NCBI RefSeq assembly: GCF_010671925.1
Contig: NZ_JAAHIH010000001.1
Span: 741,053-805,052 of the forward strand
Origin: Moorena sp. SIOASIH
GTDB taxonomy: Bacteria > Cyanobacteriota > Cyanobacteriia > Cyanobacteriales > Coleofasciculaceae
Direction: 5' to 3'
Length of the DNA: 64,000 bases
Shown here: one piece after another, positions 359-563 of the stretch
Layout of the letters: the number at the start of each line of letters is the position of its first letter
Numbering within the stretch: position 1 is the stretch's first letter
The notes under the pieces: generated by a model
Databases searched by the model: none
Told to the model about the DNA's origin: nothing
The model's input: the letters and a program-made list of their open reading frames with translations, nothing else
Position numbers and translations under genes: made by a program

Positions 359-563
359 CTATCAGCTATCAGCTATCAGCTATCAGCTATCAGCTATCAG
401 CTATCAGCTATCAGCTATCAGTTTATGCGCTACTTGAGTGGCTATTGGCCTTTGGCCACGCTACGCGAACAGCTTATGCGCTACGCGCACCGCTGACTGC
501 TGACCGCTGACTGCTGACCGCTGACTGCTGACCGCTGACCGCTGACCGCTGACCGCTGACCGC
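359..563. repeat. Composite repeat: a (CTATCAG)n array, then a GGCCTTTGGCCACGCTACGCGAAC core (~449-472), then a (CTGACCG/CTGACTG)n array.
   Basis: Read directly from the sequence. The same core and array architecture recurs at 3445-3805, 9536-9660, 39155-39245 and 59895-60147. Confidence 0.9.

Follow-up and report, generated by a model that had tools for sequence, protein, structure and literature searches.

The DNA analysed here (hereafter the window) is a 64-kb stretch of the genome of Moorena sp. SIOASIH (contig NZ_JAAHIH010000001.1, positions 741,053 to 805,052). It has a GC content of 44%, 21 sites of the highly iterated palindrome HIP1 (GCGATCGC) and a ribosomal-protein operon (matches to L13 and S9), and its other genes include fmt, a radical-SAM/DUF2344 gene, an AAA_35 gene and a tnpB-only insertion sequence (IS). 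Between and within these genes lie copies of a short hairpin-and-tail sequence, which an earlier note on this DNA had described as a palindromic core that nucleates flanking arrays of tandem heptanucleotides. Our analysis indicates that the core is very probably an extremely small (24 +/- 1 nt) non-autonomous insertion module, entering base-exactly and without target-site duplication (TSD) at T^C targets (the caret marks the point of insertion), and comparable to the small dispersed repeats (SDRs) of Nostocaceae. The module has an exact length, an asymmetric target and a fixed orientation; it causes no duplication, varies in ways that preserve its structure, and is polymorphic in presence or absence between strains.

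With up to three mismatches allowed, the 25-mer GGCC-N4-GGCCACGCTACGCGAAC has five canonical copies in the window (446+, 3780+, 9576-, 10807- and 39156-), against an expectation of 0.00 in 100 shuffles. The 17-mer GGCCACGCTACGCGAAC yields two extra matches (9559- and 50685-), for a total of seven against 0.05 expected, and the sites at 7745-7790, 60057-60086 and 63040-63070 are relatives of the same architecture with different loops or tails. Eight units in the window are complete (Table 1). The nine core positions listed in the earlier note were all correct to within a few bases, and its grouping of them as one element class bearing a hairpin like those of repetitive extragenic palindromic (REP) sequences is supported. 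A scan of a genome collection returned at least 120 loci, and any core copy number or host range drawn from it is a minimum; the copy, target, nest and array counts given below are drawn from these loci (about 1 Mb; 959.5 kb for array statistics). There are 240 copies of the module in 0.96 Mb of Moorena loci, and 203 copies share a constant anatomy, ...AACCTT, then GGCC-N4-GGCC-ACGCTACGCGAA, then CAACC....

The unit is 24 nt long, or 23-25 nt with loop or tail variants, and its general build is GGCC-N3-4-GGCC followed by ACGC-N3-5-GCGAA. A census anchored solely on the tail (ACGC-N2-5-GCGAA) found a perfect 4-bp stem with a 3-5-nt loop ahead of it in 308 of 389 instances, compared with 4.6 expected, and compensatory stem variants (CGGC/GCCG in 11 and GACC/GGTC in 7) occur beside GGCC/GGCC. 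The tail is a stem too, CGC/GCG, whose loop varies (TAC 297, CAAAG 26, TTC 17, TGC 14, TGT 7). As single-stranded DNA (ssDNA), the module is predicted to fold into two abutting mini-hairpins, .....(((((....)))))(((...))), at -7.2 kcal/mol (z = -3.2), and in this predicted fold a fifth base pair of the first stem, (T)GGCC-N3-4-GGCC(A), would be closed by the target T at position -1. Single modules account for 179 of 207 structures, the remaining 28 being multi-module, direct nests. A sibling, family B, differs in its first stem and in the loop of its tail (CCCTnnnAGGG-ACGC-CAAAG-GCGAA); the fetched loci contain 26 copies of it.

Table 1. Module copies, siblings and associated tandem arrays in the 64-kb window (TRF, Tandem Repeats Finder; ORF, open reading frame)
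Feature	Position	Strand	Context or source
Tandem array GCTATCA/CTATCAG x9.1	358..421		TRF; strain alignment
Hairpin+tail unit GGCCTTTGGCCACGCTACGCGAA, 23 nt, TTT loop	447..469	+	at GGCTAT^CAGC, degenerate CTATCAG unit
Tandem array CTGACCG x10.9	489..564		TRF; strain alignment
Arrays GAATTAA x33.9 and CATTCTG x11.9	3445..3760		TRF; both absent from SIO1G6 orthologous region
Canonical 24-mer at AAACCTT^CAACAT	3780..3803	+	supplies TAG stop of AAA_35 ORF
Two tandem sibling modules, TGACC-TGCA-TGTCA-CGCTAAAAGCGAT and T-GGCC-GTA-GGCC-ACGCTAAAAGCGAA	7727..7779	+	split HIP1-like GCGAT...CGC
Nest: inner unit 9577-9599 (GGCCTTTGGCCACGCTACGCGAA) in TT^T loop of outer unit, whose tail ACGCTGTGCGAA is at 9560-9571	9560..9605	-	
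24-mer GGCCAATAGGCCACCCTACGCGAA at GAAGCTT^CAATC	10808..10831	-	between truA-like and rplM ORFs
Canonical 24-mer, translated in frame as WPKGHATR	39157..39180	-	linker of radical-SAM/DUF2344 ORF 38222-40972(-)
15-nt array GGTTGAAGGTTATTT encoding QPxNL pentapeptides, target array	39183..39247		TRF; 2 to ~20 units among strains
Opposite-orientation nest: outer (-) TGACC...GGTCACGCTACGCGAT; inner (+) sibling 50706-50729 GGGCAAAGCCCGACGCTGCGCGAA	50686..50735	-	inner unit at CCTTTT^C of outer loop
Degenerate family-B sibling CCCT-ACA-AGGG-ACGC-CCAAG-GGAAA	59930..59955	-	inside GGTTGAA-type array
15-nt array AACCAGCTAACCTTC x9.3	59999..60147		TRF; interrupted in phase by 60058 unit
25-nt variant GGCCAAAAGGCCACGCGTGCGCGTT at AACCTT^CAACC	60058..60082	+	~90 nt upstream of fmt
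Sibling hairpin-tail modules, nested	63014..63093	-	left-end region of tnpB-only IS200/IS605 element

Comparison of empty and occupied sites between strains revealed the insertions. At 39157, strain SIO3G5 reads caacctt^caaccc and the window caacctt[GGCCAAAAGGCCACGCTACGCGAA]caaccc, a difference of exactly 24 nt whose boundaries are unambiguous and which leaves the target unduplicated. At 3780, SIO1G6 has (AAACCTT)5 CAACCTT^CAACAT where the window has AAACCTT[24]CAACAT, and in a third, reverse pair the window has ggttgaatgttg where SIO4A1 has ggttg[TTCGCGAAGCGTGGCCAAAAGGCC]aaggttg. Each of the three pairs differs by an exact 24 nt with no TSD, and the polymorphism separates strains whose proteins are 97% identical.

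The radical-SAM/DUF2344 gene has received the module repeatedly. The window protein (916 aa) is 100% identical to one from the metagenome-assembled genome 'Moorea sp. SIOASIH' and has its nearest relatives in Moorena throughout, which led to the rejection of a Nostocales origin that the heptamer arrays and HIP1 sites might have suggested. A protein alignment of the Moorena orthologues, from 882 to 971 aa long, shows them to differ in the linker only. This linker has nearly no repeat in PAL-8-15-08-1 and 2 to ~20 QPxNL pentapeptides (15-nt units) in other strains; WPKGHA(T/P)(R/G) is added in the window and three other sequences, GQKATLRE in three strains (once or up to six times), and FAKRGQKA at a second site in four strains. 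All of these additions are the same 24-mer at the DNA level, in two reading frames and with the reverse orientation included, giving at least three independent insertions in one linker, in two frames and both orientations. In SIO4A1 the 15+24=39-nt unit of the linker is amplified five-fold.

Such copies persist in coding sequences (CDSs) because the length of the module is a multiple of three and five of its six reading frames are open, so that an insertion adds eight residues or changes the C-terminus. As read from its sequence, the sole stop of the 24-mer is on the reverse strand (TTC GCG TAG), and in the reverse-oriented in-CDS copy a TAC->TTC variant replaces TAG by AAG, removing the only in-frame stop. 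The AAA_35 ORF (3795-5129, minus strand) ends at a TAG (3795-3797) inside the inserted 24-mer, and its protein has 444 aa in the window versus 450 aa in SIO1G6, which has no insert and reads on into the heptamer array. In-frame copies were found in radical-SAM, AAA_35 and tnpA genes, and long open frames enclose 51 of the 178 core clusters. The tnpA case is in locus L060, where the Y1 (HUH) TnpA gene of an IS605-like element (5060-5551, minus strand) carries an in-frame 24-nt sibling, TCGGCAGAGCCGACGCTGCGCGAA (stem CGGC/GCCG), encoding RQSRRCAN, so that here a transposase gene has itself been invaded by the mini-element.

The target rule was derived from 186 distinct 60-nt contexts, obtained by collapsing orthologous or tandem copies. 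Information is confined to positions -6 to +5 (~0.1 bit beyond), with frequencies (%) of A67 A70 C84 C81 T86 T97 before the insertion point and C94 A66 A67 C74 C69 after it. Over the 203 copies and 186 contexts, T(-1) reaches 97-100% and C(+1) 94-96%; CCTT^ is present in 160 of the 203 copies, the preferred target is AACCTT^CAACC, and the orientation of the module is fixed relative to this asymmetric sequence. In about 40 of the 186 contexts the module sits in unique sequence outside arrays, at HIP1 or in a hairpin loop, and these contexts have just T^C in common. These minor targets comprise HIP1, read as GCGAT^CGC (GCG^ATCGC on the other strand; L038/L088, L116, L018, L064 and window 7727-7779), the T-rich loop of a copy already in place, GGCCTT(T)(T)^, with C or T next after the insertion point, and other xxxT^C sites in unique sequence. 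Insertion into the loop of another copy therefore creates nests, and among the 28 multi-module structures the left half-hairpins mostly equal the right tails in number ((2,2) ten times and (3,3) twice). Since the module inserts at T^C, mostly within AACCTT^CAACC, it lands in pre-existing short tandem repeats, sometimes in frame in genes.

The mechanism that we propose would involve an enzyme acting in trans, which would read the folded single strand and cut after CCTT and after GCGAA. Once the module is in place, ordinary repeat slippage can co-amplify the array unit together with the core into arrays of 31 or 39 nt. By analogy with known systems, the enzyme could tentatively be sought among the ssDNA nuclease-ligases of the HUH/Y1 type, such as the TnpA of IS200/IS605 or a REP-associated tyrosine transposase (RAYT), an assignment to which we give rather less than an even chance.

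Several observations weigh against the core being a mobile module of this kind. No transposase is linked to it: a phmmer search for Y1 proteins among 2419 ORFs of the ~1 Mb of core-containing loci found a single one, an IS605-type TnpA, and no RAYT was seen adjoining cores in the same loci. The left- and right-end hairpins (GGGCAAGGGG..., CCCACATCA...) of the IS copies in the window, L051 and L060 are unrelated to the module. On the 8.26-Mb contig of M. bouillonii, the two orientations are interspersed (30-/21+) with no replichore pattern relative to a replication origin that is itself undefined, and orientation is also mixed within the window, unlike the replichore bias of IS608/ISDra2. The stems, at just 3-5 bp, would be marginally stable unless protein-bound. 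Nor do the empty sites distinguish sites never occupied from sites precisely excised. No clean empty site could be reconstructed for the 447 copy, in a region too diverged between strains; SIO4A1 (L124 2299-2444, orthologous to window 302-563) has hairpin-less ACGCTACGCGAAC tails there, set among consecutive degenerate CGNNNAG heptamers (CGAACAG, CGATTAG, CGCTACG...), and the tail and heptamer units may share a history at this site.

It is also conceivable, if on balance unlikely, that the module is moved by a mechanism new to mobile DNA, in which the folded 24-mer would be recognised, and pasted at T^C with no duplication and no replichore bias, either by an enzyme or by a repair or replication pathway of the host. 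If true, the module and the Nostoc SDRs would together constitute the smallest class of site-specific mobile DNA, and the related Moorena genomes would make SDR mobility tractable by phylogenetic profiling.

A spread driven by homology would require no dedicated enzyme, the module being copied by ectopic gene conversion between CAACCTT-type arrays or by annealing of array single strands at replication forks. The absence of TSDs and the fixed orientation relative to the flanks would follow naturally from such a process; 124 of the 203 copies lie between AACCTT and CAACC, themselves repeated array sequence, and the failure of the Y1 search of ~1 Mb to find a transposase for the module would be consistent with it. 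However, the shared flank information ends at -6 and +5, the host arrays keep their distinct 15-mer units up to the junction, and the ~40 unique, HIP1 or loop contexts have only T^C in common. A homology of 5-6 nt is far below what recombination requires. Because flank similarity stops after 5-6 nt and so many contexts are unique, we rate homology-driven spread as improbable.

The relation between cores and arrays is non-random, as the earlier note had proposed. Arrays cover 3.95% of bases in the array dataset, and 44 of 178 core clusters are found no more than 5 nt away from one, against 11.4 expected (70 against 17.4 within 30 nt); in an intergenic-only control, the corresponding counts are 33/127 versus 21.2 and 50/127 versus 28.5. 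The lack of enrichment that, by the earlier note, would have refuted its proposal is therefore not what these counts show. Within the window, TRF confirmed the arrays of CTATCAG, CTGACCG, GAATTAA, CATTCTG, GGTTGAAGGTTATTT and AACCAGCTAACCTTC. The claim that most core copies there are flanked by heptamer arrays was overstated, with only four of nine (447, 3780, 39157 and 60058) within 30 nt, yet this is far above chance (4.7% of the window lies that close; P = 5e-4). The suggested placements upstream of fmt (60058), between operons (9577 and 10808, which flank rplM-rpsI) and inside a CDS (39157) are all correct. Hypervariability of the arrays between strains was likewise borne out at 359-563, where CTATCAG is repeated 9 times in the window versus once in SIO4A1 and CTGACCG ~11 versus 4 times; SIO4A1 has no GGCC hairpin at the orthologous position, and a third strain, SIO1G6, has unrelated sequence with a CCCCATCT array.

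That the core comes first and then seeds its flanking arrays, for instance through replication stalling and slippage, is nonetheless very improbable. The four-fold enrichment of cores near arrays and the window P value would agree with seeding, but the enrichment is limited to arrays of the target motif: 53 of 130 arrays with CCTTC units (~41%) hold or abut a core, as opposed to 19 of 651 others (~3%). Two expanded arrays enclose the 447 copy and are short in the strain without the hairpin; against this, at 60058 the perfect 15-mer array resumes in phase beyond the 25-nt insert, and arrays without a core occur in sister strains at each of the three loci compared (SIO3G5, radical-SAM linker; SIO1G6, AAA_35 3' end; SIO4A1, the 359-563 site) and in Symploca, where 22.7 kb contain 9 arrays, many of heptamers, and 0 units. 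No array is near five of the nine window sites, and ~40 window arrays are without a core. In a limited sense cores do generate arrays, and this part of the idea stands. Composite arrays arise around them with a period of 39 (15-nt unit + 24-mer; L012 x12 at 4094-4391, L063 x9 at 5784-6081, and L122 x5 in the radical-SAM linker) or 31 (7 + 24; L020), and self-nesting yields short runs of GGCCTT half-hairpins and of 17-nt tails. The flanking arrays themselves are landing pads for the module and not its products, and the causal reading of the earlier note is reversed: each CAACCTT-type heptamer or 15-mer array offers target sites in series, which is why copies accumulate there.

The 39-nt composites were also considered as clustered regularly interspaced short palindromic repeats (CRISPR) and rejected, the 15-nt "spacers" being near-identical array units (L012) and the L122 array lying inside a CDS.

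A selected, immobile cis-acting motif (for instance a site bound by a protein, a hairpin that stabilises RNA or acts as a terminator, or a signal for recombination) would explain why stem covariation shows structure to matter and why several window copies are sense-oriented inside or between operon genes, but is very unlikely for a sequence whose presence differs between 97%-identical strains and which occurs in frame in CDSs, in a transposase gene and in other copies of itself. Its position and orientation relative to genes are not fixed, the hairpin is followed by no T-run, and there is no Rfam match in the window (0 families at gathering thresholds).

Within the sample available, the module family is confined to the genus Moorena. 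Among the matches listed, 119 of 120 loci belong to five Moorena genomes; the exception, in Micromonospora sp. NPDC093277 (L087), is the one locus outside Moorena that matches the 21 specified bases of the core exactly; as its genome is GC-rich, the match was attributed to chance and left out. In 68 kb of syntenic DNA from Lyngbya aestuarii, Symploca and Microcoleus, three neighbouring genera, there are 0 units, compared with 7-8 in the 64-kb window. A blastn search of the PLSDB plasmids matched no cyanobacterial plasmid, returning merely chance-level enterobacterial matches (E ~0.9), and a scan of viral contigs for the module gave 0 matches. Exact-protein look-ups with fmt and L13, intended to reach orthologous sites, returned no match.

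The SDRs of Nostoc punctiforme, reportedly described by Elhai et al. in 2008 (Genome Res 18:1484), are said to be 21-27 nt long, to include hairpin-forming types (SDR4, SDR5 and SDR6) and to lie within tandem heptamer repeats and within one another. According to later sources, SDR5 is a 21-nt module (bioRxiv 10.64898/2026.06.24.733823) inserted precisely between the third and fourth bases of HIP1 (PMC4390886), similar repeats were not found outside Nostocaceae (PMC5861425), and the origin of SDRs is described as unresolved (PMC3116915). The Moorena module falls within the same 21-27-nt class and shares high-copy dispersal, a hairpin kept by compensatory change and precise insertion, from which mobility is inferred in both. 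The HIP1 insertion point is also the same as that of Moorena GCGAT^CGC read on the other strand, here a minority target. In contrast, Moorena (Coleofasciculaceae) lies outside the reported Nostocaceae range, and its main target is AACCTT^CAACC, not HIP1. The literal core sequence did not occur in the literature searched. SDRs are nevertheless the closest known kind, and we regard the module as SDR-like and in a new lineage; it agrees in every architectural feature compared, the comparison being with SDR descriptions in citing papers.

Other known elements resemble the module in part. Like REP sequences and the REP doublets (REPINs) associated with RAYTs, it is a short GC-rich hairpin with hundreds of copies, non-autonomous, structure-dependent and cluster-forming (Bertels & Rainey 2011, PMC3116915). 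REPINs, however, are inverted doublets and extragenic, whereas the Moorena units are singletons or direct nests with a defined target, in frame in genes. The module is therefore not a REPIN, as it forms no doublet and is not extragenic; no RAYT was seen in the ~1 Mb of loci. Elements of the IS200/IS605 family (IS608, ISDra2) move by peel-and-paste ssDNA transposition and insert 3' of a tetranucleotide without duplication. The module likewise sits immediately 3' of a specific tetranucleotide, with no TSD and in a fixed orientation, and in the IS the hairpin ends are required. The Moorena unit, however, measures 24 nt and these elements more than 100 nt. Its hairpins bear no relation to the ends of IS605-family elements in the same genomes, and it has no replichore bias. 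It is not a miniature element derived from IS200/IS605, given the unrelated hairpins (window IS, L051, L060) and the absence of strand bias.

Rickettsia palindromic elements are selfish palindromic repeats of ~100-150 bp that lie in frame in protein genes and are tolerated as an extra peptide. They share in-frame gene insertion with the module, but are larger and occur in another phylum, with neither a defined short target nor a preference for arrays. Heptamer arrays of the short tandemly repeated repetitive (STRR) type were reportedly described from cyanobacteria by Mazel et al. in 1990. The CTATCAG, CTGACCG, GAATTAA and CAACCTT arrays beside the cores are ordinary, slippage-prone heptamers of this type; the core, in contrast, belongs to no array unit and interrupts arrays. 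Cyanobacterial repeats have also been covered by an LSSR survey, as cited in PMC4679880.

At ~24 nt, such mobile DNA reaches the lower bound of size among all DNA known to transpose. In the literature searched, the SDRs (2008) were the sole described precedent found, still without a mechanism and reported only from Nostocaceae. With the Moorena family, the phenomenon is now seen in another order of cyanobacteria and has a clear target rule (CCTT^C), and the empty/occupied polymorphisms among sequenced strains provide material for finding the responsible enzyme by comparative genomics. As a consequence of the module, real genes acquire eight residues in frame or end in an altered C-terminus, and some of the intergenic hypervariability that distinguishes Moorena strains is accounted for. 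By inflating and interrupting arrays the module complicates assembly and the calling of repeats or CRISPR; repeat finders could mistake the 39- and 31-nt composites for CRISPR-like arrays.

The relatives near 63040 lie in the tnpB-only IS200/IS605-family element (61713-63283, minus strand), which encodes OrfB_IS605 and Cas12f-like TNB domains, with a likely start at ATG 62937. Its left end carries the hairpin GGGCAAGGGGTCTCCC... and its right end the hairpin CCCACATCA...TGATGTGGG, followed by AGTAG. The 63040 relative was considered as a terminal hairpin of this element and rejected, the true left-end hairpin being GGGCAAGGGGTCTCCC... and the hairpin-tail modules internal insertions. An 83%-identical copy of the element is present in L051, where 63066-63093 (~28 nt) is missing, and a tnpA-bearing relative in L060. 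Inside the left end of the window element, positions 63130-63233 hold a ~104-nt inverted-repeat insert (arms TAAGACAGGCTCGCCTT) resembling a miniature inverted-repeat transposable element; it is absent from the L051 copy, and its arms have one more match, in L022.

Elsewhere, the window has ~40 separate heptamer or other short-period arrays, mostly intergenic and unrelated to the core (e.g., 3445-3681, 24180-24242, 25160-25271, 27858-27915 and 45438-45477). A coding tandem repeat of 21 nt (7 codons) is present four times at 136-231, producing a C-terminal tail of the ERQRAEQ type; the ORF that carries it ends near 301, and its orthologue is a Uma2-family gene in L124.

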